Assembly: GCA_049509455.1 (NCBI GenBank)
Contig: JBEKZX010000016.1
Span: 1-27,713, forward strand
From: Conexivisphaerales archaeon
GTDB lineage: Archaea; Thermoproteota; Nitrososphaeria; Conexivisphaerales; DTJL01
Length of the DNA: 27,713 bases
Reading direction: 5' to 3'
Positions 3,533 through 15,444 of the stretch are shown in pieces; position 1 is the stretch's first letter, and each line of letters begins with the position of its first letter. Both the position numbers and the translations under genes were made by a program. The notes under the pieces are model-generated. The model ran no database searches, was not told the origin of the DNA, and saw nothing but the letters and a program-made list of their open reading frames with translations.

Positions 3533-3745
3533 CTACATGGTCCGATGAAAGTCAGTATTTGACTTCAACTTCGTAAGAATCTCGTCCCTGCGGAAGGTGG
3601 ACCCGATGAATAGCAAGATCAGGTCGACCAGGAGGAGAACCGTCGAGATGACCAAGAGGGTGTCAGCGTCTAACGAGACAAGGTCGATCTCCTCCGCGAC
3701 GTACAGCCCCGCGAAGGGGAGTACAATCAACCCTCCGAACCAGAT
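3533..3745 (-). pseudogene. C-terminal remnant of an ABC-2-type permease
   Basis: GGLIVLPFAGLYVAEEIDLVSL...LLLVDLILLFIGSTFRRDEILTKLK resembles the ...TFxREEILTKWK end of ABC-2 permeases as I recall it. No N-terminal part or ATPase partner; abuts the 3' end of the PAP2 gene. Confidence 0.45.
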
Positions 3746-4527
3746 TCGGCAGCCCGAGAGGGGGTCCACAGTCTATCGAAGAGGGGCTTGCCGACGGCCC
3801 AAGCGAGTACTATCCCGGAGACCTCGTCGGCGATGTAGTGCTGCTTGATGAACAGGGTCGAGAGGATGACCCCTACCGCCACGCCCAGAGAAAGGAGGGT
3901 CAAGGCCCAAGTGCCCCTTCCGGGCCGCACCCTGGCGTATCTGTACCAAGTGTAGAAGCAGATGGTGGAGACCGCGGCGTGAAGGCTGGGGAAGCAGTTG
4001 AAGGAGGTGTCGCTGGCGAATATGTCGTAGACTTGGGTGGCCCAGAAGTTGCCGGTGATGGGTTGCGCCAGCAGCTCCTCCCTCCACCAGTACGTCGAAA
4101 CGGGAAAGACCACATAAATGGCTAGGGCGATGGCGTTGATCGAAACGAGAGACCATCCGACGGCATAGCCTCCCCTGTATTCGACGAACGCGAAGTAGAG
4201 CATGGTCAGTATGACCATGGGGTAGAACAGGTAGACATAGAAGATGACCGTCTGTGGCACGAACGGAATCGCATCGTCCAGGCCGCCGGTCAGGACGTCG
4301 AGGCGGAAGCCTGTGCCGGGGGCGTACAGCCGTCCGGTCCAGTCATAGCCGACCGTGTTGAGCAGGAAATAGAAGAGCACCAGCATCAGAATGATGCTAC
4401 CAAGCACGTAAGTGACGTAGGCGCTCGCCCGCGTCGACTTGCCCCCGAAGAAGGTCTTCTCTATCCCACGCTGCAGCTTGCCATGCAGTTTCGACATGGT
4501 CCGATCAACCGGTGCGCGTTTCGCCAA
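3727..4527 (-). CDS. PAP2-superfamily integral membrane phosphatase/phosphotransferase (AUR1/IPC-synthase-like)
   Basis: C2 motif NCFPSLHAA and C3 motif KQHYIAD, about 6 TM helices, TATA-like CCTATATAC upstream of the TTG start. Confidence 0.85.
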   Translation of the reverse strand: MAKRAPVDRTMSKLHGKLQRGIEKTFFGGKSTRASAYVTYVLGSIILMLVLFYFLLNTVGYDWTGRLYAPGTGFRLDVLTGGLDDAIPFVPQTVIFYVYLFYPMVILTMLYFAFVEYRGGYAVGWSLVSINAIALAIYVVFPVSTYWWREELLAQPITGNFWATQVYDIFASDTSFNCFPSLHAAVSTICFYTWYRYARVRPGRGTWALTLLSLGVAVGVILSTLFIKQHYIADEVSGIVLAWAVGKPLFDRLWTPSRAAESGSEG

Positions 4528-5121
4528 TCATCGTAGCCCTGGCAAGTATATAGGGGATGCCTTGCGCTTCGTCAATGGCCGCTTCTCTCTGGCACTGTCA
4601 GTGGCGCAAGGCGTTGTCGTGGAAGGGTCTGACTGAATCATAATCCTTAAGCCATTAAACGGGCGACAGCGTCCATGAATTGAAGCCAGACGAGCCAAGG
4701 GTCATGGCGAAGATTAGTGTGCGGCGGGGTGATGCCGTCTCTTGAATCTGTACAAGGCCCTGGCAATCTTTCTTTCTGCACGTTCTTGGCTTCAGTCATA
4801 CTAGCCTTCCTCTTCTCTTAGGTTGGGGTTCCCCCTTCTAACTAAACGATCATCGCCCGGCTTGTAGCGTTGGGAAGCTCCTTGTCGCCGTCCCTTGGTT
4901 TCTTCAGCACGCGGAATCGGGAGCGGATCATCGAGCTATTGAAGGAGATTCAGGACAACCCGAAGGACCAGGACAACCTTGGAGCCTCTCTCCACCGTCC
5001 TGGCCTTCCTGGGTGTGGGCTCTCTGGGACCATGTCATTCGCTAAGCCTTATCGCTAGATTTGGGTACGTTTCCGGAAATCCGTTATATGGGCTCTGCAG
5101 GACATTGGGAACCGTCGGGAA

Positions 5122-5535
5122 TTGATGCAGAAGAGCTTGGCCTCCGCCGACGGCCGGACGCCGGCCGCACCATCCGTGGGCGCCATTGGACAGATTAGGG
5201 TCCTGGACATCCGGGTCGACAGGATCGTCTCCTCCAACTTCCGCCACGTCATAAAGAGGTACCTGAAGAGGGTGGGCTTCTATGCCCTGAAGGCGCACCA
5301 CGTGGCGGACACGGACCCGTTCTCCATGAGGCTGCAGGTGGAAGGGAGCGTCAGCAAGCCGCTAGTTTCCGACCAGATGGCCAAGTTATCCTACCTTTGC
5401 GATCGTCTAGCCTTCGTCATGAACGGCGGAGTAGTGGGCTTCCCTCCTCCGTCTGGGGCCGACGCAGAACTGCTGAGGACCGAGCTGGCCAAGGTGGAGC
5501 CGCGTCTGAAGACGGTCTATTATAGAAGGGCCTGA
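5122..5535 (+). CDS. Hypothetical protein
   Basis: 137-aa ORF with plausible alpha/beta composition; TATA-like TTATAT at about 5084-5089. No motif recognised. Confidence 0.55.
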   Translation: MMQKSLASADGRTPAAPSVGAIGQIRVLDIRVDRIVSSNFRHVIKRYLKRVGFYALKAHHVADTDPFSMRLQVEGSVSKPLVSDQMAKLSYLCDRLAFVMNGGVVGFPPPSGADAELLRTELAKVEPRLKTVYYRRA

Positions 5536-5974: not shown

Positions 5975-6259
5975 ATGAACTCGACGAGCGGCAATCCAGA
6001 CGAAGAGAAGGAAGCCGATAAAGAATCCGAGGCGATAGAGCAGGAGCATGAGGTGGACGCTGCTGAGGATGTCAAGCCAGTGGAGGAATTGGAGTCCGAA
6101 GGGCAGGAGCAGGAGACCGAAGAGGAATCGGAGGAGCACGAGTCAGAGGAGATAGAAGACAGGGAAACCGAGCAAGATAAGGCTAGAGCGCACAAAGAGA
6201 AAAGACCAAATCTCTCGACAAAGAAAAAGACGATGCGCAGGAGAGAACATCTAGATTGA
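5975..6259 (+). CDS. Small disordered protein with acidic body and basic tail, translationally coupled to ppk2
   Basis: 32 D/E in residues 9-68 and 11 K/R in residues 69-90; TATA box upstream; TTGA stop/start overlap with ppk2. Confidence 0.65.
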   Translation: MNSTSGNPDEEKEADKESEAIEQEHEVDAAEDVKPVEELESEGQEQETEEESEEHESEEIEDRETEQDKARAHKEKRPNLSTKKKTMRRREHLD

Positions 6260-7077
6260 AAGGAGGCTCTCACACCAAACGATACAGGATTCGTCCAGGT
6301 CAAAAGGTCCGCCTGAACAAATGGAATCCCAATGATACGTCGGGTTTCGATGGAAACGAAAGTGAGGCGCTGGAAGAGTCAAAGAGGCTGAGCAAGGAGC
6401 TCGAACAACTTCAGGAGAAGCTCTACGCGGAGCATGAACACGAGGTGCTATTCGTTCTGCAGGCCATGGACACCGGTGGCAAAGACGGCACCATTAGACG
6501 CGTCTTCGAGGGGGTCAATCCTCAAGGAGTGCGAGTTGCGCGTTTTGGGGTTCCATCTACTGAGGAACTCAACCATGATTTCTTGTGGCGAGTGCACCTC
6601 CAAGTACCTGGAAAAGGCGAGATTGTCATATTCAACCGCAGCCACTATGAGAGCGTATTAGTCGAGCGGGTCCACAAACTCGTTCCTGAAGAAGTCTGGA
6701 AGAGCAGATACCAGCAGATCAACGGCTTCGAACGGTCGTTGTGCGAAGAAGGCATGACCATCGTGAAGTTCTATCTCCACATCGATGAGGATGAACAGAA
6801 GAAACGATTGCAGGATCGCCTTGATGATCCTAACAAGAGGTGGAAGTTCAGCACCTTTGATGTGTCGGAACGGAAGCTCTGGCCAGAGTACATCAAGGCA
6901 TACGAAGACGTCTTGGAAAAGACCAGTACTGATTGGGCTCCTTGGTACCTGGTGCCAGCAAATCACAACTGGTTCCGGGACGTGATAATTTCCAGCGTCA
7001 TCGTGAATACGTTGGAGAAGCTGGACATGCATTATCCGCCCCTGGCCAAGGATCTCAAGTCGATCGTCATCAAGTAG
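6256..7077 (+). CDS. ppk2: Polyphosphate kinase 2 family (class III-like polyP:nucleotide phosphotransferase)
   Basis: Walker A QAMDTGGKDGTI, HDFLWR, Walker B region FNRSHYE, lid RLDDPNKRWKFS, TSTDWAPWYLVPAN. Confidence 0.95.
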   Translation: MKGGSHTKRYRIRPGQKVRLNKWNPNDTSGFDGNESEALEESKRLSKELEQLQEKLYAEHEHEVLFVLQAMDTGGKDGTIRRVFEGVNPQGVRVARFGVPSTEELNHDFLWRVHLQVPGKGEIVIFNRSHYESVLVERVHKLVPEEVWKSRYQQINGFERSLCEEGMTIVKFYLHIDEDEQKKRLQDRLDDPNKRWKFSTFDVSERKLWPEYIKAYEDVLEKTSTDWAPWYLVPANHNWFRDVIISSVIVNTLEKLDMHYPPLAKDLKSIVIK

Positions 7078-7173
7078 GAGATCGTCTAAGGAGACATGAC
7101 GGGACCAACAGGCACAATTCAGAAGGAGCCTGTTCCTCGTGCGGGTCTCGGCGGAGGTCGGGCTCCAAAGTGG

Positions 7174-8010
7174 CTAGGTCCTCGGTGTCGGCGAACTTGA
7201 CGGGGAGATTGCGACCAGTTTGCGCCTGAAGGACTCGCAGAATGACAGGTAGCCCTCATGCCTCCTGCGCAGCTCTTCCTCCAAGACCCTCCGAACAGCC
7301 GGGTGACCCCTCAGTTGACGGAGGTAAGTGATCATCAGGTCTTCGTCGTGGATGGCGCCCAGCTCATCCTGGAGCTCCTCCAGGATGCCCAGCAGCGAAG
7401 CATTCCCCCGATCGGTCTCTGCGAACTCTACAACATAACGCAGCTGCTTGCAGTGTTTCCGCAACCGATGGAGTGTCGCTTCGTCGGTCTCGTCTCCGAG
7501 GACGGTCTTCACTTCATCGTCGATCAGGTCGCTGAGCTTGCCCACGACCTTCCTGACCTTGTTGTTCAACCTGCGCCCTGACACCGAAGAGGGGAGAACC
7601 ACTGGCTCTTTGGCCTTGAGCAAAGACCCAGCCGCGGCCCGAGAGGACCGCACGTGGATGGCCCTCTCCTGCGCGAGGTCGTCGATCAGACGCAGGAGCC
7701 TATCGTTCCGCGCTTCGCCGGTCAACCTGTCAGTCATGACGTCCGAATCTCTGACCTTCGTCGTGAGCTTGAAGACGTTCTTACAGCCCGCCCGAAACTC
7801 CCTGTGCGCGCCGGACCGACGAAGCTTGTTGGTGACGACCGCCTCGGCGGCTTCGAACCGCCTGATGGCCGTCCTCAGGTCGTGGATGTTCGCGGCGCTG
7901 GGATCGGCCCTGAACTTTTTCAGCCTCTTGGTGACTCCGCCGACCCGCTCCCCGAATATGGAGGCGAAAGCGTCGACGTCTAAGTCGCTTCTGGTCAAGC
8001 TAGTCGTCAA
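7174..8010 (-). CDS. CHAD-domain polyphosphate-binding protein
   Basis: Paired His/Arg motifs IHDLRTAIRR and LHRLRKHCKQLRY, plus LQDELGAIHD; all-helical; SD-like GAGGAAGG before the TTG start. Confidence 0.92.
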   Translation of the reverse strand: MTTSLTRSDLDVDAFASIFGERVGGVTKRLKKFRADPSAANIHDLRTAIRRFEAAEAVVTNKLRRSGAHREFRAGCKNVFKLTTKVRDSDVMTDRLTGEARNDRLLRLIDDLAQERAIHVRSSRAAAGSLLKAKEPVVLPSSVSGRRLNNKVRKVVGKLSDLIDDEVKTVLGDETDEATLHRLRKHCKQLRYVVEFAETDRGNASLLGILEELQDELGAIHDEDLMITYLRQLRGHPAVRRVLEEELRRRHEGYLSFCESFRRKLVAISPSSSPTPRT

Positions 8011-8258
8011 CCTTCCTCGGGAGGTCGACGTCTAAGGCACCGAGACGACACCCCAGTAGGATGCCGGGAGAGGTAGCCTGCACTCACACCAGTACACCCT
8101 TCAAGCCAAGAGTAGATAGAGGCTCTGAATCGTATTTTAGACTTTGCATCGTATGTGCGGAAAGGGGGACGTCGCAATCCCATCCAGAGCAGTAGACCTC
8201 AGGACTTTATGCAGGCTCCAAGTAGGCGCATGTCTGGAAAAGATGTCGACGGGTCATG

Positions 8259-8367
8259 GGAACGGTGGGAACGTGGGAGAACGACAAGGAATGGGGCAGA
8301 ACGGAGGGGTAACGCCTAGAGAACGATGGAGGAATGGGGCGGGAAAGATGAGTAACGCATGGGAACG
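8259..8367 (+). repeat. Helically phased array of 11 RKAAYG hexamers (mean period 10.3 bp)
   Basis: AA cores at 8261, 8270, 8280, 8290, 8300, 8311, 8322, 8333, 8344, 8354, 8364; 10 of 11 match RKAAYG (one is GGAAAG). AGGAATGGGGC occurs at both 8287 and 8330. Confidence 0.7.
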
Positions 8368-8500
8368 GCATAATGCCTTCCCACCGCAAGTCTCGCCTCG
8401 TACAGGTCAGTTGAAGAGGGCAGAGCAGCACTGACAGTTGATCGATTGCGTCAGAAGAACTCGCACGAGTGGGAAGAATGTGGCTCGACTTAGCTGGGCA

Positions 8501-8911
8501 TCAGTTGCCCGGCTTGACTTCCTTTGGCTCTTCGACGCTCGTAGCGACCTTCTTCGATTCGTTTGGTGTATTCTTCATTCGTGCTTCAATTGCCGCCTTA
8601 GCCTTCCCGGTCGCCTTTGCCGCCTTCTCTTCAAGGGCTTGGACTTTCCCCTTGATCTTCTTCTCTTCGCGTTTGGCGCCTGCAGCCGCTTTCAGCGCTT
8701 CCAGCTCGGCCTGCATCTTCTTATGCAGGTTGTCTATCTCGTCCTTGAGCTTGACTCTCTGCTCAGTTCGCAAGTGCGCCAGCTCTGTTTTCAAGCTAGC
8801 AACTTCCGTCTTCAGAGCCAACTCTGTTTTCAAGCTGGCAATTTCCGTCTTTAGAGCTGCCAGCTCCTTAGCGAGTTCTTTCTTTGTCATCTTCTTAGTC
8901 TTTTGTGCCAT
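8501..8911 (-). CDS. Lys/Ala/Glu-rich coiled-coil protein of unknown function
   Basis: MAQKTKKMTKKELAKELAALKTEIASLKTELALKTEVASLKTEL heptads and a KAAKATGKAKAA tail. Start placed at ATG 8911. Confidence 0.75.
   Translation of the reverse strand: MAQKTKKMTKKELAKELAALKTEIASLKTELALKTEVASLKTELAHLRTEQRVKLKDEIDNLHKKMQAELEALKAAAGAKREEKKIKGKVQALEEKAAKATGKAKAAIEARMKNTPNESKKVATSVEEPKEVKPGN
8780..8857. repeat. 39-bp tandem duplication (2 copies) within the coiled-coil gene
   Basis: cagctctgttttcaagctagcaacttccgtcttcagagc / caactctgttttcaagctggcaatttccgtctttagagc, encoding ALKTE(I/V)ASLKTEL twice. Confidence 0.9.
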
Positions 8912-9196
8912 TATGCTACCACACACTTAATGACGTCGATGGGGTATTTGAACAAGACGTGTATACTGTGGTCCGAATGAACAGCCTGCAACCTTGAAAT
9001 GAAAAGTCTATGTGTTTCTTGCACGGAATTCCAACAAGATGATAGCGAGCCATCCTTTCCTGGCGGAACAGGCATCAAGAACCGTGACGTCGAGCGGCAG
9101 CTGAATGCAGTCTACTACCACCGGCATCCGTAACCCCTGGTCCTAGAGGTCGGCCAATCCCGAGAAGGGGACTGTCTCTTGTAACATCTAGTGAGG

Positions 9197-9226
9197 CCAA
9201 GCAGGAACCGAGCGATGACTGCTTGG
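9197..9226 (-). terminator. Inverted repeat downstream of the ppx-kinase operon (possible terminator or processing hairpin)
   Basis: CCAAGCAG (9197-9204) and CTGCTTGG (9219-9226) form a perfect 8-bp stem about 20 nt after the stop at 9248. No U-tract. Confidence 0.3.
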
Positions 9227-9247
9227 GCTAGGTCACTGTCCAGCTTT

Positions 9248-9973
9248 TCACTGCTGTTGGTCGAGGTAGTCGTCAATCATCCTCTGCAGGTCCGCGTTGA
9301 CTTCATTCACGCTTCTGTTGCCGTCTACCCTGATCAGCTTGTACTTCTTCTCCATGGAGGCGAACTCCCTAACCATGAGCCTTTGGTACTTGATGAATGA
9401 ATCGTAGAGGTCGTCGGAAAGCCCCATGTCGGCCCCCGACTCGTAGTAGTCGAGGGTTCCGTCCTTCTTGAAGGCCCTGTCGAAAAGCTCGACGGGCTCC
9501 ACATCGAGACAGAAGGCCAAGTCTGGCTTCAGGGCGAAGCCGAAGAGGTCATGGGACCACTTCCTGCTTATCCCCCTGACTACACTCCTGGCTATCAGCG
9601 TATAGATGTAACGGTCGGCTAGGACCAACTGTCCAGCGTGAAGCGCGGGGAGGATCTTGTGCTCAAGCTGGTCGGCGAAGTCGGCGGCATAGAAGAGGGT
9701 CAGGGTCTTCTTTCCCAACGGCAGCCTCTGCTTGGCGGTGAGTATCCCCGCCCCAATGAGTTCGGACCTCTTCAGCCCCGTTGTCACAACGGCATGTCCC
9801 GCCGTCTCCAGCTTGCTCATTATGAGGTTCGTCTGCACGCTCCTTCCGGCAGCGTCGGGCCCCTCGATGACGATGAGCCTGCCCTTTACCTCCGCCTTAT
9901 TCAAGTTGGGGAGGCCCTCTCCGTAGTACTCGATAAGCTTCGGCCGAATGTTGCGCGCTGGCCTACTGAGCAA
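9248..9973 (-). CDS. Thymidylate-kinase-fold protein with degenerate P-loop; probable regulatory subunit of heteromeric PPK3
   Basis: EGPDAAGRSVQ replaces EGxDGxGKTTQ; DRY motif retained; second gene of a tandem pair downstream of ppx; overlaps its partner by 11 nt. Confidence 0.8.
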   Translation of the reverse strand: MLSRPARNIRPKLIEYYGEGLPNLNKAEVKGRLIVIEGPDAAGRSVQTNLIMSKLETAGHAVVTTGLKRSELIGAGILTAKQRLPLGKKTLTLFYAADFADQLEHKILPALHAGQLVLADRYIYTLIARSVVRGISRKWSHDLFGFALKPDLAFCLDVEPVELFDRAFKKDGTLDYYESGADMGLSDDLYDSFIKYQRLMVREFASMEKKYKLIRVDGNRSVNEVNADLQRMIDDYLDQQQ

Positions 9974-10667
9974 GGCCCTTCTCCTCCTGGACGCCGACTT
10001 CGGGGGATATCATCATTTTGACCTTATCGCGGACGAAGTTCTGCTGAGTCTCTATGTCCTGGGTCCCATCAACCACAGTGAAACCCTCCCGCAGCACCAT
10101 CCCTTCGTACTGCTGGGTGATTCTCCCCTGAAATATCCTGTAGCTTTCATAAATGTCGTTGCTGAGGTTGAGGTCCATGCCAGATTCGTAATGCTTGAGT
10201 TTGGGCCTCCCTTCGAGGATTCTGTCCACTGCCACGTCCACTGGGACCCTAAAGTAGAATGCGATATCGGGCCTGGCCGGGAAGCTGTACACCTTCCTGA
10301 CCCAGTCGGGGGAGCATCCCCGGACCACGTCCCTCGCATAGGCCGTGTAGACGTACCTGTCGGCGAGCACAAAGTAGCCGGCCCTCAGAAGCGGGAAGAT
10401 GTTCCTCTCGTAACGGTCGGCAAAGTCCGTGGCGTGGAGGAGGCTAAATGTGGTCGGCGTCAGCAGTCCCTTCTTCTTACCCTGGGAGGTGATCTCCTTC
10501 ACGACCTCCGAAGAGTTCCATTCCGTGCGGAAGACCCGAAGGCCTAGGCTAGTGAGCCACTTCTCCAGGAGGTGGAGCTGTGTGGTCTTCCCTGATCCGT
10601 CAATCCCCTCTCCGACGATCAGCCGCCCTTTGACCGGCAACCTGTGACTGCTCGTGCTCGTGATCAT
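9963..10667 (-). CDS. Thymidylate-kinase-fold protein with intact P-loop; probable catalytic subunit of heteromeric PPK3
   Basis: EGIDGSGKTTQ and LADRYVYT; ATGA overlap with the ppx stop. Gene order ppx-kinase-kinase matches the Sulfolobus PPK3 locus as I recall it. Confidence 0.82.
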   Translation of the reverse strand: MITSTSSHRLPVKGRLIVGEGIDGSGKTTQLHLLEKWLTSLGLRVFRTEWNSSEVVKEITSQGKKKGLLTPTTFSLLHATDFADRYERNIFPLLRAGYFVLADRYVYTAYARDVVRGCSPDWVRKVYSFPARPDIAFYFRVPVDVAVDRILEGRPKLKHYESGMDLNLSNDIYESYRIFQGRITQQYEGMVLREGFTVVDGTQDIETQQNFVRDKVKMMISPEVGVQEEKGLAQ

Positions 10668-12196
10668 CTCTCCTTGCTAAAACTGGGATCTCGGGCTTTC
10701 CGGCCTTTCGAGGGCTCAGGAGCTTCCCTCTTCACCTTGACCGCGACCTTCAATCCGAAACCACCTTCAAGGGTCTTGACGGCTTCTTCAAACTGCCGCC
10801 GGGGGAAGCCCCTCTCGAGGGGGATCACCTCCAGCGTGATCTCGTTCTTGCCTAGGCGCGCGGTGACGTCACAATGGGTCCTTTCGAGCAATTCTATGAT
10901 GGTCGTGCAGTAGGCCAGTCCCTTTATGGCTTCCCTGCCTTCCACATCTAGTATCGACTTGTACCTCGCGAAGAACCAGTCAGCCACCCTGGGCTTCCTT
11001 GTCCTTACGAGAGCGATGGAGGCAGCGAGCTGGAGGGAGTGGCTGAGAGGGCTGTTCTCATACATCGATGCGTAGAATAGGGTGAAGGGGTCTAGGCAGG
11101 AGCTTTCACCCGTGGCCAGCCTGACCGCATGAACCAGCGCGGGAACATGCTCCTCTTTTATGAGGCCGGCACCTTCGAAGGCCTCCAATAGGGGGCGTGA
11201 ATAGCGGAGGAGGTTCCTCCAGGCGGGAGGCTTGGCCAACTCGGCAACATGCGCCTCCCTCATCGACCTCTTCGAATAGACATAGGGGTCGTCGAGAAAC
11301 GCCTTGAGGACGCCGTCCCTGAGGCCGTGGGTGCTCGCGTGGAGGTCGTCGATGGACAGGCTTTCCATCAACGACTTGCAGACAAGGGCCCCTGCAACGA
11401 TGGTTTCAGCGCGGCCGCCGCCGATGGGTTCAATCTCGGCTATCTCGACGGCGGGCAGCTTCTGAAGCCTTTCGAACATCGATTCCACAGCCGCCCTCTT
11501 TAGAACGTAATTGTGGACCTTATAGAACGGGTACTTCCTCAGCTCCTGATCATAGCGAGCCAGGGCCCGAACCGTTCCACCGACGCCGGCGAGAGCCGCT
11601 CCGCCCTCGATCTCGAGTTCTCTCCTGTTGGGGAGGAGTTTCAGGACCTCCCGCTCCATTCCTTTCAGTTTCCTCCTTGAGTATCCCCCCCGAGAGTCCG
11701 CGAAGGACTGAGTCAGCTTCAGAGCTCCAATCGGGAGGCTCATCACCTTGACCAGCTTAGCCTTCCTTGTAGCGGTGATTTCTAGGCTCCCACCGCCTAG
11801 GTCGAAGAAGACGGAGGAGGAAAGGTTCATCGCTTCCGCGGCACCTAGGAAGGAGAAGAGCGCCTCCTCCTTCCCCGAAAGGACCCTGAAAGCAAAGCCC
11901 GTCTCCTTATTCGCCCGCTTGACGAACTCCATGCCGTTCTTCGCTTCTCTGACGGGGCTGGTTGCGATGGGCAGCACACGGTCCAGGCCTTCCGTATTCA
12001 CTATCTCCTTGTAGAGGCGAAGGGTCTCAATGGTGCGATGCATGGGGTCCTCTCCCAGCCTTCCGGTCGTGTTCAGCCCTTCACCCAGCTTCGCCATCGC
12101 GCCGTACTGATCATACGCTTCAAAGGAACCGCTGTCGGTGACTCGATAGATCACCATCTTCAGAGAGTTAAAGCCGAGATCGATGACGGCGACCTT
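10664..12196 (-). CDS. ppx: Ppx/GppA exopolyphosphatase (start codon anomalous)
   Basis: KVAVIDLGFNSLKMVIY lies in frame upstream of ATG 12157; also RVLSGKEEALFS, FFDLGGGSLEI, GVGGTVRAL, RAETIVAGA, GLRDG. No in-frame ATG/GTG/TTG before the first motif. Confidence 0.92.
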   Translation of the reverse strand, partial: KVAVIDLGFNSLKMVIYRVTDSGSFEAYDQYGAMAKLGEGLNTTGRLGEDPMHRTIETLRLYKEIVNTEGLDRVLPIATSPVREAKNGMEFVKRANKETGFAFRVLSGKEEALFSFLGAAEAMNLSSSVFFDLGGGSLEITATRKAKLVKVMSLPIGALKLTQSFADSRGGYSRRKLKGMEREVLKLLPNRRELEIEGGAALAGVGGTVRALARYDQELRKYPFYKVHNYVLKRAAVESMFERLQKLPAVEIAEIEPIGGGRAETIVAGALVCKSLMESLSIDDLHASTHGLRDGVLKAFLDDPYVYSKRSMREAHVAELAKPPAWRNLLRYSRPLLEAFEGAGLIKEEHVPALVHAVRLATGESSCLDPFTLFYASMYENSPLSHSLQLAASIALVRTRKPRVADWFFARYKSILDVEGREAIKGLAYCTTIIELLERTHCDVTARLGKNEITLEVIPLERGFPRRQFEEAVKTLEGGFGLKVAVKVKREAPEPSKGRKARDPSFSKER

Positions 12197-12243
12197 CGAT
12201 GCACTTCACCACGCGAGAGCCAGGACAGCGGTCAGGAGAACCC

Positions 12244-12735
12244 TTACCTAAGCCTCTTGATGATTCTGGGGCTCAGGAGCCACCGCAGCTCGCCCGTCAT
12301 CTTGGGAGTGAAGGAAGTCACGGAGATGCGAGCCAGCCCAGACTTCTTGAGCAGGATCTTCGCTTCAGGCCCCGCCCCAACCGCCTCTGCCACGAACGAA
12401 GAAAGAAATGGCTCGTGGCCGACAAGAAGAACGGAGGAGTCACGCCTGATCCTCGAAAGCTTCTTCACCAGGTCCTCCCTGTTCGCCTCGGGCTTGAGCT
12501 CCGCCCACTCTTCGACTTCGACCTTGAATGTCTTCCCGGCTATCTCGGCCGTCTCCTTCGACCTCTTCAGGGGGCTAGTGGCTATCCTGTCTAACTTGAG
12601 GCCCAAGGCGTCTAGCCTCCCGCAAACCTCCCCCACCTCCTTCCTGCCTGTGGAGGTCAAGGGACGCTCGGCGTCCAATCCTCCCATTGGAAGCGTCTTG
12701 CCGGCCTCCCCGTGCCTAAGAATGTAGATGTCCAC
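12244..12735 (-). CDS. sixA: SixA-like phosphohistidine phosphatase (histidine phosphatase superfamily)
   Basis: LRHGEA, RPLTSTGR, TSPLKRSKETA, LLVGHEP, LKKSG; GTG start. Confidence 0.9.
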   Translation of the reverse strand: MDIYILRHGEAGKTLPMGGLDAERPLTSTGRKEVGEVCGRLDALGLKLDRIATSPLKRSKETAEIAGKTFKVEVEEWAELKPEANREDLVKKLSRIRRDSSVLLVGHEPFLSSFVAEAVGAGPEAKILLKKSGLARISVTSFTPKMTGELRWLLSPRIIKRLR

Positions 12736-12756
12736 GGAACTTCGCTCGTTTCGCCG

Positions 12757-12764
12757 TTATATCA
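12757..12764 (-). promoter_or_regulatory. TATA box of the sixA-ppx-kinase operon
   Basis: TGATATAA on the minus strand, 22 nt upstream of the sixA GTG. Confidence 0.5.
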
Positions 12765-12894
12765 GTGTATTGTGACTCCAGAAAGCGCTCCCGAATGTTT
12801 TTCCCCAGTTTTCGAGGAATCGGATTTGGAACGAGCAAGTGGTGCTCGACGAAGCAAGCCGAGGAGATACAGGGCATCTCCCAGATGGCAGGGA

Positions 12895-15444
12895 TTAGAA
12901 TTTCACTCGACTGTAGAAAATCCTCTTGGCCACTTCGCCTGAGACAATATAGAGTAGCACGATCACCGCCATCGCCAACATAAACGAAACGGGGGGCGGG
13001 CTAAATCCGAACAAGCCTCCTAGAAGAGTGTAGGGAAGGATAAGGGAGACGCCGACAGTCGCTATAGTAGCTACCACTAATTGCCTCCCCGGAACACTCT
13101 TGAAGAAGGGACGCCGGCTCCGGATGACCATTACAACTAGAGTCGCTGAGACGACCGACTCCACAAACCAGCCGGTTCTAAATAGGACGGTCGACGAACG
13201 CAGGACAAGCAACAGCATTCCAAAGGTGAGATAGTCAAACACCGAACTTAGGATGCCGAACGTTATCATGAAATTGCGAATGAATTTGACGTTCCACCGT
13301 CGAGGCTGTTCGACCATTTCACTATCCACATTGTCTGTGCCGATGGTCATCTCTGGGAAATCTGTCATTAGATTGGTAAGCAGTATCTGCGTGGGCAGGA
13401 GCGGGAGAAAGGGGAGGAAGAGGGATGCACCTGCCATGCTGAACATGTTTCCGAAATTGGCGCTGGTCGCCATGAATACATACTTGAGGGTGTTGGTGAA
13501 GGTTCTTCTTCCTTCCTTTACTCCTTGGACAAGCACGCTCAGGTCTTTTTCACGCAGAACGATGGATGCCGATTCTTTCGCGACATCCACGGCGCTCTCA
13601 ACTGAGATCCCGACGTCAGCAGCATGGAGAGCTGAGGCATCGTTGATTCCATCTCCCATGTACCCTACAACATTCCCGGCCTTCTTGAGCGCGAGAATGA
13701 TGCGTTCCTTCTGGTTTGGCTCCACCTCCGCGAATATGTCAGTCTGATTCACGCTTGCGAGCAGCGCCTCGTCACTCATCTTAAGGAGGTCCGGACCCGC
13801 AACGACTCTTGGAGCTGGGAATCCGACCTGCTGAGCAAGGACACCTGCGACCAGTCGGTTGTCTCCTGTCACGATCTTCAGTGAGATTCCGAGATGTTTC
13901 ATCTCGCCAATGGTCTCGGCGATGTTTGGCTTGACAGGGTCGAAGAGGAGAAGGAATCCCAAGAAGGTCATTCCGACTTCACTATCTTTCGTAATGAGTT
14001 TCTCAGTTCCAGTGGACTTGTAAGCGACCCCCAGAACTCGAAGGCCTTTGGCGCTGAACTCTTCAAAGCGTTGTTGAACCTGCTTTCGCGCCTCCGCGAT
14101 TTCAACGATGGTACCCTCGGAAGTTTCAACCGAGGAGCAGGCATCAAGCACATTCTGCAGAGCACCTTTCGTCACCATCAGGCCCTCTCCGTCCTTTGAC
14201 ACCAAGATGCTCAACCGCTTACGAATGAAATCATACGGGACCTCGTCCAGCTTCCGGTAAGCGGACACATCAAAATGATGAGCCTGAATCGCTTCGTCAG
14301 TCCGAATCGCTTCGTCTATGGGATTGGTGAATCCAGTCTGGTAATAAGCGTTGAGAAAAGCGTAGAGAAGCACCTTTTCGCTTTCCTTTCCCTCAACGTC
14401 AAGCATGGACTGTATCTTTACCACGCCCTCTGTCAGGGTGCCAGTCTTGTCGGAGCAGAGCACGTTCATGCTGCCAAAATTCTCAATGGATTCCAACCGT
14501 TTGACTATGACTTTCTGCTGCGCCATCTTTTTCGCTCCCTGAGCAAGGTTGATGCTGATAATCGCCGGGAGCAGTTGCGGAGTCAATCCCACAGCGAGAG
14601 CTAATGAAAAGAGAAGAGATTCCAGCACCGGACGCGCAAGATACACATTTATGGCGAAAGTGACAACCACTAGTAGCATCGTAACTTCCACAAGAAGATA
14701 CCCGAACCGCCGGACGCCATGCTCAAACTCGGTTTCGGGTGGCTTTAGTTTCAACCGCTCGGAGACTTTGCCGAACTCGGTTCTTGATCCGGTCCCAATA
14801 ACCACTGCCTGTGCGCTGCCACTGACTACGTTTGTGCCCATGAAGAGACTGTTTGTCCGCTGACTGAGCGCTGTTTCAGGCGGTAGAACTCCGGCCGTTT
14901 TCTCAGCTGGATAAGTTTCTCCAGTCAAAGATGCTTCATTGACGAAGAGGTCTTTGGATTCTATAATCAAAGAATCTCCGGGGATAAGGTCTCCAGCGTT
15001 GAGGATGACAACGTCTCCAGGCACGATCCCCTCGACCGGGATCTCCTTTTGACTTCCATCGCGAAGTACGGTCGCCTTGGTCTGCACGATCGCGAGCAAC
15101 TTCTCGACAGCTTTGTTGGCGCCTCGCTCCTGCGAGAACCCGAGGAGGCTGCTTACCAGGATGATGACCAGGATGATGACCGCGTCCACGTGATCACCAA
15201 GGAAGAATGACAACCCCCCTGCGAAGATCAGGATGAGGATGACCGGGCTCTTGAACTGGGCGAGCAGAAGTGTGGGGGTATCCGATCTCTTCTTCGGCGT
15301 CAGAAGGTTCGGGCCATACTGCTTGAGCCGTTTTCCCGCTTCATCGTCAGTTAGGCCTTTCGATGATGTCTGTAGACGCTGAAATACATTTGGAGTGGGG
15401 ACGCTCCAGAAGGATTGCTCACTTTGGCTATCTTGGTCGCTCAC
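12895..15444 (-). CDS. mgtA: Magnesium-translocating P-type ATPase (MgtA/P3B-like)
   Basis: Phosphorylation motif CSDKTGTLT, TGET actuator variant, PYDFIRKRLS, TKGA, TGDN, MGDGINDASAL, SANFGNMFS; about 10 TM helices. Cation specificity is inferred from family only. Confidence 0.88.
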   Translation of the reverse strand: MSDQDSQSEQSFWSVPTPNVFQRLQTSSKGLTDDEAGKRLKQYGPNLLTPKKRSDTPTLLLAQFKSPVILILIFAGGLSFFLGDHVDAVIILVIILVSSLLGFSQERGANKAVEKLLAIVQTKATVLRDGSQKEIPVEGIVPGDVVILNAGDLIPGDSLIIESKDLFVNEASLTGETYPAEKTAGVLPPETALSQRTNSLFMGTNVVSGSAQAVVIGTGSRTEFGKVSERLKLKPPETEFEHGVRRFGYLLVEVTMLLVVVTFAINVYLARPVLESLLFSLALAVGLTPQLLPAIISINLAQGAKKMAQQKVIVKRLESIENFGSMNVLCSDKTGTLTEGVVKIQSMLDVEGKESEKVLLYAFLNAYYQTGFTNPIDEAIRTDEAIQAHHFDVSAYRKLDEVPYDFIRKRLSILVSKDGEGLMVTKGALQNVLDACSSVETSEGTIVEIAEARKQVQQRFEEFSAKGLRVLGVAYKSTGTEKLITKDSEVGMTFLGFLLLFDPVKPNIAETIGEMKHLGISLKIVTGDNRLVAGVLAQQVGFPAPRVVAGPDLLKMSDEALLASVNQTDIFAEVEPNQKERIILALKKAGNVVGYMGDGINDASALHAADVGISVESAVDVAKESASIVLREKDLSVLVQGVKEGRRTFTNTLKYVFMATSANFGNMFSMAGASLFLPFLPLLPTQILLTNLMTDFPEMTIGTDNVDSEMVEQPRRWNVKFIRNFMITFGILSSVFDYLTFGMLLLVLRSSTVLFRTGWFVESVVSATLVVMVIRSRRPFFKSVPGRQLVVATIATVGVSLILPYTLLGGLFGFSPPPVSFMLAMAVIVLLYIVSGEVAKRIFYSRVKF

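Follow-up and report, generated by a model that had tools for sequence, protein, structure and literature searches.

Within a 27,713-nt stretch of DNA from a Conexivisphaerales archaeon (the whole stretch is called the window here), nine open reading frames (ORFs) between positions 5975 and 15444 combine genes of polyphosphate (polyP) metabolism with a predicted Mg2+ pump and two small orphan proteins. Does this locus encode a whole polyP storage compartment, as a sequence-only reading of the window had proposed, or a known polyP system with additional neighbors? We consider it probable that the locus is the known archaeal operon of the polyphosphate kinase PPK3, SixA-PPX-cPPK3-rPPK3-CHAD (12735 to 7174, minus strand), together with neighbors that are specific to one genus. 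The gene set listed in the earlier reading (PPK2, CHAD, a pair of proteins with a thymidylate kinase (TMK) fold, Ppx, SixA, an MgtA-type ATPase and the two orphans, all within 9.5 kb) is present in full. All nine ORFs were confirmed by ORF listing and translation, and seven match named families above the curated cut-offs of Pfam and NCBIfam (Table 1).

A probable PPK3 operon in Conexivisphaerales

In Sulfolobus acidocaldarius, ppx lies in an operon with genes for SixA (saci_2017), two "thymidylate kinases" (saci_2019 and saci_2020) and a CHAD protein (saci_2021), and the kinase-like pair is a heteromeric reversible polyphosphate kinase, PPK3, made up of cPPK3 and rPPK3 (Hofmann et al., J Biol Chem 2026, PMC12995831). 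The enzyme favors ATP formation from ADP and polyP, and the family has been reported from Sulfolobaceae, Nitrososphaeria and a few bacteria (PMC12995831). On the minus strand of the window the order is SixA, PPX, TMK, TMK, (coiled-coil gene), CHAD, so that the core agrees with saci_2017-2021 in its five gene families, in their order and in their location on one strand. The earlier statement that no described system has this arrangement is therefore wrong for the core, which has the gene order of the published PPK3 operon (PMC12995831).

The two TMK-fold proteins also resemble the Sulfolobus system individually. The first is orthologous to S. tokodaii STK_15430 (PDB 2plr/5h70; 213.6 bits over residues 13-213), which has been cited as a cPPK3 homolog (PMC12995831), and it has an intact P-loop (GSGKT) and a DRY motif. 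In the second, the P-loop lysine is replaced by arginine (AAGRS), as in the Sulfolobus regulatory subunit. A third Thymidylate_kin match in the host genome is a separate housekeeping TMK (G000:C1:145907-146503), again as in Sulfolobus. Judged by these sequence features, the tandem pair is the two-subunit kinase PPK3; the two adjacent TMK-fold ORFs had been recognized correctly, and they are the kinase itself. Among the remaining core proteins, SixA passes its equivalog cut-off and carries the catalytic RHG motif near its N terminus at residues 7-9 (RHGEA, 7-11), and CHAD domains are known to bind polyP (PMC6537752).

Table 1. Features of the polyP locus in window coordinates, in the order of the minus strand (aa, amino acids)
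Feature	Coordinates	Strand	Description
MgtA-type P-type ATPase	12895..15444	-	849 aa; TIGR01524 817 bits (cut-off 610.75)
SixA-type histidine phosphatase	12244..12735	-	163 aa; TIGR00249 96.6 bits (cut-off 74.5); first gene of the core operon
PPX, exopolyphosphatase of the Ppx/GppA family	10664..12157	-	497 aa; PF02541 184 bits, TIGR03706 231 bits
cPPK3, catalytic subunit of family-3 polyphosphate kinase (by sequence), TMK fold	9963..10667	-	234 aa; E 2.1e-62 to STK_15430
rPPK3, putative regulatory subunit, TMK fold	9248..9973	-	241 aa; E 8.7e-32 to 2plr
Lineage-specific basic coiled-coil protein	8501..8926	-	141 aa; pI 9.7, net charge +12
Phased array of 11 RKAAYG (GAACG-type) motifs	8259..8375		~10.3 bp spacing; in the 490-nt coiled-coil/CHAD gap
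CHAD-domain protein	7174..8010	-	278 aa; pI 9.8; PF05235 76.4 bits (gathering score 25.6)
PPK2, single-domain, class III-like (by similarity)	6256..7077	+	273 aa; PF03976 245 bits, TIGR03709 379 bits (cut-off 247)
Small acidic protein	5975..6259	+	94 aa; pI 4.5, net charge -20; TATA box at -32

The window is contig C49 of the host assembly (G000; 2.05 Mb, 95.5% complete). The genome has one copy each of PPK2 and CHAD and a single PPK3-type gene pair, all of them at this locus, and no PPK1 was found in its 2.05 Mb. Since the sole PPK2, CHAD and PPK3-type genes of the genome are co-located and PPK1 was not found, the clustering of polyP genes is real and not due to chance. Unrelated genes flank the locus (a permease, a PAP2 phosphatase, split sulfur-transport proteins, a molybdo-flavoenzyme and DUF885), and no Rfam family matched anywhere in the window. 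The PAP2-superfamily membrane phosphatase (window 3727-4527) lies 1.4 kb off the island, and its proximity to polyP genes is not kept in congeners.

The window differs from the S. acidocaldarius operon in that the coiled-coil gene and a 490-nt spacer with the motif array lie between rPPK3 and CHAD, and in that MgtA lies directly upstream. It also has an adjacent PPK2, although PPK1 and PPK2 are both missing from most genomes with PPK3, and its host belongs to Conexivisphaerales and not to the two families highlighted in the original description (PMC12995831).

Transcription units and the motif array

The PPX stop and the cPPK3 start overlap by 4 nt, cPPK3 and rPPK3 overlap by 11 nt, and a TATA-like sequence (GATATAA) lies 27 nt upstream of SixA. 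These overlaps and this promoter-like element suggest that SixA-PPX-cPPK3-rPPK3 is transcribed as a single unit. Gaps of 159, 321 and 490 nt set off MgtA (159 nt upstream of SixA), the coiled-coil gene and CHAD, which are apparently separate transcription units. A scan for bacterial-type promoters and terminators gave nothing usable, its models being bacterial and not applicable to archaea.

The RKAAYG motifs in the spacer upstream of CHAD are far more frequent than expected (11 observed versus ~0.16 expected per 110 nt) and may form a candidate binding array for a regulator. One second array of this kind, and no further one, occurs in the host genome, next to a hemerythrin-domain gene (G000:C86:45990-46135; L135 about 4990-5135). 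The array was not seen in the polyP loci retrieved from congeners.

The base composition of several neighbors departs from that of the core. GC content is 0.51-0.52 in the acidic ORF, PPK2, the coiled-coil gene and MgtA, compared to 0.58 for the genome, and GC at third codon positions (GC3) is 0.60-0.64 in these four genes versus 0.73-0.80 in the core and the flanks. The GC3 of MgtA (0.61) falls within the lowest 5% of ORFs of at least 500 aa. In two congeners (G001 and G002), PPK2 and the coiled-coil gene are likewise lower than the core.

Distribution and synteny

We searched 80 cPPK3-centered loci from named genomes of other Nitrososphaeria (up to 10 kb per side, 25 of them with full flanks) with all nine proteins. 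Genes of the core were found at most of these loci: rPPK3 at 78 (25 of the 25 with full flanks), PPX at 69 (23), SixA at 61 (22) and CHAD at 41 (19). PPK2 was found at a single locus, which has full flanks, and MgtA, the coiled-coil protein and the acidic protein were found at none of the 80 loci and hence none of the 25. The proposed co-conservation of mgtA and the orphans with polyP genes thus largely fails outside the genus. Of 401 Thermoproteota genomes sampled more widely, 31 were found to have the PPK3 pair, and these belong to four families only, namely that of the host, two that the named loci suggest to be ammonia oxidizers, and a fourth that is presumably Sulfolobaceae. Within the order, the pair was found only in the genus of the host, in three of its four other genomes.

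Five genomes of this genus are available, all of them metagenome-assembled genomes (MAGs) of 59-95% completeness, and local synteny is scrambled among all of them, with window flanks not shared. In G001 the order is CHAD-rPPK3-cPPK3-PPX-SixA, DUF47, a PiT phosphate transporter, MgtA, the coiled-coil gene and a convergent PPK2, and the acidic ORF lies 3 kb beyond CHAD. In G002 only the core is together: PPK2, the coiled-coil gene and PPK3 each lie on a separate contig, and the MgtA proteins found in that genome were all paralogs at 44-45% identity, with no ortholog among them. The operon of G003 is on a 2-kb contig. G004 has an MgtA that is 91% identical and cut by the contig end (G004:C7 position 4) and an acidic ORF on a large contig without polyP neighbors; PPK3, PPX, CHAD, PPK2 and the coiled-coil gene were not found in this genome (86% complete).

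Two features of the G001 locus are worth recording. The PhoU_div (DUF47) and PHO4/PiT genes between SixA and MgtA (G001:C25; L002 12884-14510) place phosphate uptake alongside the MgtA-type pump and the polyP genes. The rPPK3 (L002 9175-9898) and MgtA (L002 14931-17442) genes are frameshifted and split over several frames, which, with a completeness of 59%, suggests indel errors of the assembly rather than true pseudogenes. We rejected as unproven the idea that this MgtA is a pseudogene, since rPPK3 on the same contig is frameshifted as well.

Motifs of the regulatory subunit

The replacement of the P-loop lysine by arginine is common to all 16 Nitrososphaeria rPPK3 sequences examined and to the Sulfolobaceae rPPK3 sequences, with one exception among the latter. 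The second motif differs between the two groups. In Sulfolobus rPPK3 the DRX arginine is replaced (PMC12995831), and the Sulfolobaceae sequences in which we found the motif have DGY, whereas the window rPPK3 keeps the arginine (DRY), as do 15 of 15 other Nitrososphaeria rPPK3 sequences. Going by these motifs, loss of the DRX arginine, the published explanation of why rPPK3 is inactive, does not apply to Nitrososphaeria.

PPK2 and its junction with the acidic ORF

PPK2 is convergent with CHAD. Its closest solved chain is 5lc9 (E 1.3e-106), deposited as a polyphosphate:AMP phosphotransferase, and we take the solved chains so deposited, led by 5lc9, to be the class III PPK2 group. Like the single-domain class III proteins (5lc9/5o6k, 6aqe and 6an9), the window protein has a single domain, with the Walker A motif TGGKDG; its class is assigned by similarity only, and it differs in its TTG start and in the lost start of an N-terminal extension. 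A class III-like PPK2 is predicted to form ADP and ATP from AMP and polyP. Strong PPK2 matches occur in six of the 31 PPK3-positive genomes of the 401-genome sample, and in the other five the gene is far from PPK3 or on another contig. Among the 80 surveyed loci, all from outside the genus, PPK2 accompanies PPK3 only in a Nitrosopumilales MAG (CAZHNH010000031; L070 12294-13088), where a PPK2 with 62% identity is directly convergent with CHAD as in the window.

The TTG start of PPK2 overlaps the stop of the acidic ORF. Upstream of this TTG, an ERTS-L-G-SHTKRY extension can still be read in the PPK2 frame (window 6184-6259) but has no start codon left, and the acidic ORF overlaps this remnant in another frame. 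In G001 and G002 the same extension belongs to PPK2, which has its own ATG. These sequences suggest that the ancestral 5' end of PPK2 was replaced by the acidic ORF, in what looks like a recent rearrangement and not an old partnership. Alternatively, the junction might possibly yield a frameshift-fused product.

The acidic and the basic orphan proteins

Both orphans are real ORFs and do have the opposite charges that had been attributed to them. The acidic protein matches no Pfam or NCBIfam family above cut-off but belongs to a family that is small but real, with a conserved start and the conserved motifs EAIEQEHEVDAA and ETEEESEEHESEEIEDRE in an alignment of 11 homologs. A codon-position test on this ORF could not separate the sense and antisense frames, which share third positions, and we take the ORF as coding because of its conserved start, conserved motifs and promoter. 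Homologs in three other genomes (G004, and G726 and G634 of another family) have no polyP neighbors, which speaks against the acidic protein being part of a polyP module.

The likely start of the coiled-coil gene is the ATG at 8911, and AlphaFold2 predicts the protein to be a single helix (residues 15-126, predicted local distance difference test score 80). No Pfam or NCBIfam family was found above cut-off for it, coiled-coil matches being sub-threshold only; a search of a protein atlas returned no named cluster, only generic long-helix look-alikes with scores of at most 0.80; and a metagenome scan with the coiled-coil alignment returned one 1.4-kb contig. There are 14 relatives among 5.8 billion proteins, and within the order the protein was found in this genus only. 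Inside the gene, a 39-nt tandem repeat (8778-8857; 2.1 copies, 90% match) encodes a 13-residue unit, and homologs differ by exactly one such unit, which indicates that helix length varies with repeat copy number. In keeping with the earlier reading, the protein is encoded near polyP-related genes wherever its ortholog occurs, but this co-occurrence extends over one genus only. The G002 gene lies beside a weak possible CHAD remnant (30% identity by tblastn, three stops, Pfam E 0.16), which is a hint only. More distant coiled-coil paralogs are in unrelated contexts, between DUF1269 and DUF308 genes.

AlgP of Pseudomonas aeruginosa is a basic, histone H1-like protein localized to polyP granules (PMC9239181). 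Like AlgP, the coiled-coil protein is small, basic and rich in lysine and alanine, and it is encoded beside polyP genes. The basic part of AlgP is a disordered KPAA repeat, in contrast to the uninterrupted helix predicted for the window protein. No sequence homology between the two was detected, so the likeness is one of analogy, and known granule-associated families (AlgP/PhaF-type proteins and phasins) likewise showed no homology to the 141-aa protein beyond the sub-threshold coiled-coil matches.

The MgtA-type ATPase

The MgtA protein matches the MgtA/MgtB model (TIGR01524) over its full length and has the DKTGT phosphorylation motif; it is predicted to import Mg2+. Mg2+ is a cofactor and counter-ion of polyP. 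Bacterial mgtA is controlled by Mg2+ sensing, through PhoPQ and a leader, and to our knowledge is not part of polyP operons. Adjacency of MgtA to a PPK3 operon was seen only in the window and in one congener, G001, and polyP genes were absent from all ten loci centered on other MgtA homologs or paralogs.

Proposed function and alternative explanations

From the gene identities, orthology, synteny and distribution described above, we infer how the encoded activities might be combined. By analogy with the Sulfolobus enzyme, cPPK3 and rPPK3 would assemble into a heteromeric reversible ATP:polyP phosphotransferase whose main role would be to regenerate ATP from ADP and polyP at low energy charge; PPX would hydrolyze polyP and CHAD would bind the polymer. 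The class III-like PPK2 probably also uses polyP to phosphorylate AMP to ADP and ATP, and the combined locus would then link all of the adenylate pool with polyP. The genes for MgtA and for the two small proteins, basic and acidic, would be later additions in this genus only, and the rearrangement that brought in the acidic ORF may also have supplied PPK2 with a promoter. A functional tie of MgtA to polyP is plausible but unproven, the plausibility deriving from the role of Mg2+ as cofactor and counter-ion, and the same grade applies to a tie of the basic helix through polyanion binding. Such a tie is unlikely for the acidic protein, because the fusion-like PPK2 junction looks like a recent rearrangement.

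Could the nine genes instead form one module that builds and services a polyP granule, with synthesis by PPK2 and PPK3, turnover by PPX, Mg2+ import by MgtA, a coat or scaffold of the charged proteins and phospho-histidine control by SixA? The confinement of all polyP-specific genes of the genome to 9.5 kb, the recurrence of the same gene content, plus phosphate uptake genes, in G001, and the example of AlgP, a basic protein located on polyP granules (PMC9239181), would fit such a module, as would the position of the basic protein beside polyP-related DNA in three of three genomes with an ortholog, even if one of these neighbors is the weak CHAD remnant. However, MgtA and both small proteins are missing from every PPK3 locus surveyed outside the genus, the ten other MgtA loci lack polyP genes, members of the acidic family lie apart from polyP genes in three genomes, and the candidate parts are dispersed in G002, where an orthologous MgtA was not found. 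The apparently separate transcription of MgtA, the coiled-coil gene and CHAD also argues against a single module, and both kinase families favor polyP consumption in vitro (PMC12995831). We therefore regard this explanation as highly improbable: the whole storage compartment proposed earlier is not supported, and MgtA and the two small proteins are neighbors in one genus rather than conserved parts. A related possibility is that the PPK3 operon gained a class III PPK2, an ATPase dedicated to Mg2+ import and a polyP-binding basic granule protein (an analog of AlgP or phasins without sequence relatives outside the lineage), with the GAACG array as the site of a dedicated regulator; this, too, seems improbable.

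The opposite possibility is that MgtA, the coiled-coil protein and the acidic protein are unrelated to polyP and, perhaps after horizontal acquisition, landed in a rearrangement-prone region, with only PPK2 belonging functionally with the core. The atypical GC3 common to the added genes, the scrambled synteny in all congeners, the distant coiled-coil paralogs between DUF1269 and DUF308 genes and the MgtA paralogs and homologs elsewhere without polyP neighbors are all consistent with such arrivals. Such arrivals are harder to reconcile with G001, which retains MgtA, the coiled-coil gene and PPK2 near the PPK3 operon after rearrangement, and with the coiled-coil ortholog, which was not seen apart from polyP-related DNA in its three genomes; on balance we think complete unrelatedness unlikely. 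Two observations weigh against a known PPK3 operon with genus-specific neighbors as well. In G001 the operon still has MgtA, the coiled-coil gene and PPK2 no farther than 8 kb away despite an inversion and the DUF47/PiT insertion, and this persistence through rearrangement is a hint that linkage was selected for and is not accidental. In addition, the DRX arginine is intact in the window rPPK3, so that the assumption of an inactive, regulatory subunit may not transfer from Sulfolobus.

Implications

The PPK3 operon with genus-specific neighbors, which we favor, is a lineage-specific variant of a known system rather than evidence for a novel type of storage compartment, and it extends the recently defined PPK3 system to Conexivisphaerales. 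The locus is one of the few cases found here of PPK3 and PPK2 side by side, which bears on how AMP, ADP and ATP might be coupled to polyP in archaea, and its basic helix provides one candidate for an archaeal polyP-associated protein. Finally, the catalytic arginine that is lost in Sulfolobus rPPK3 is kept in Nitrososphaeria, and the regulatory-subunit model may therefore need to be re-tested in this group.

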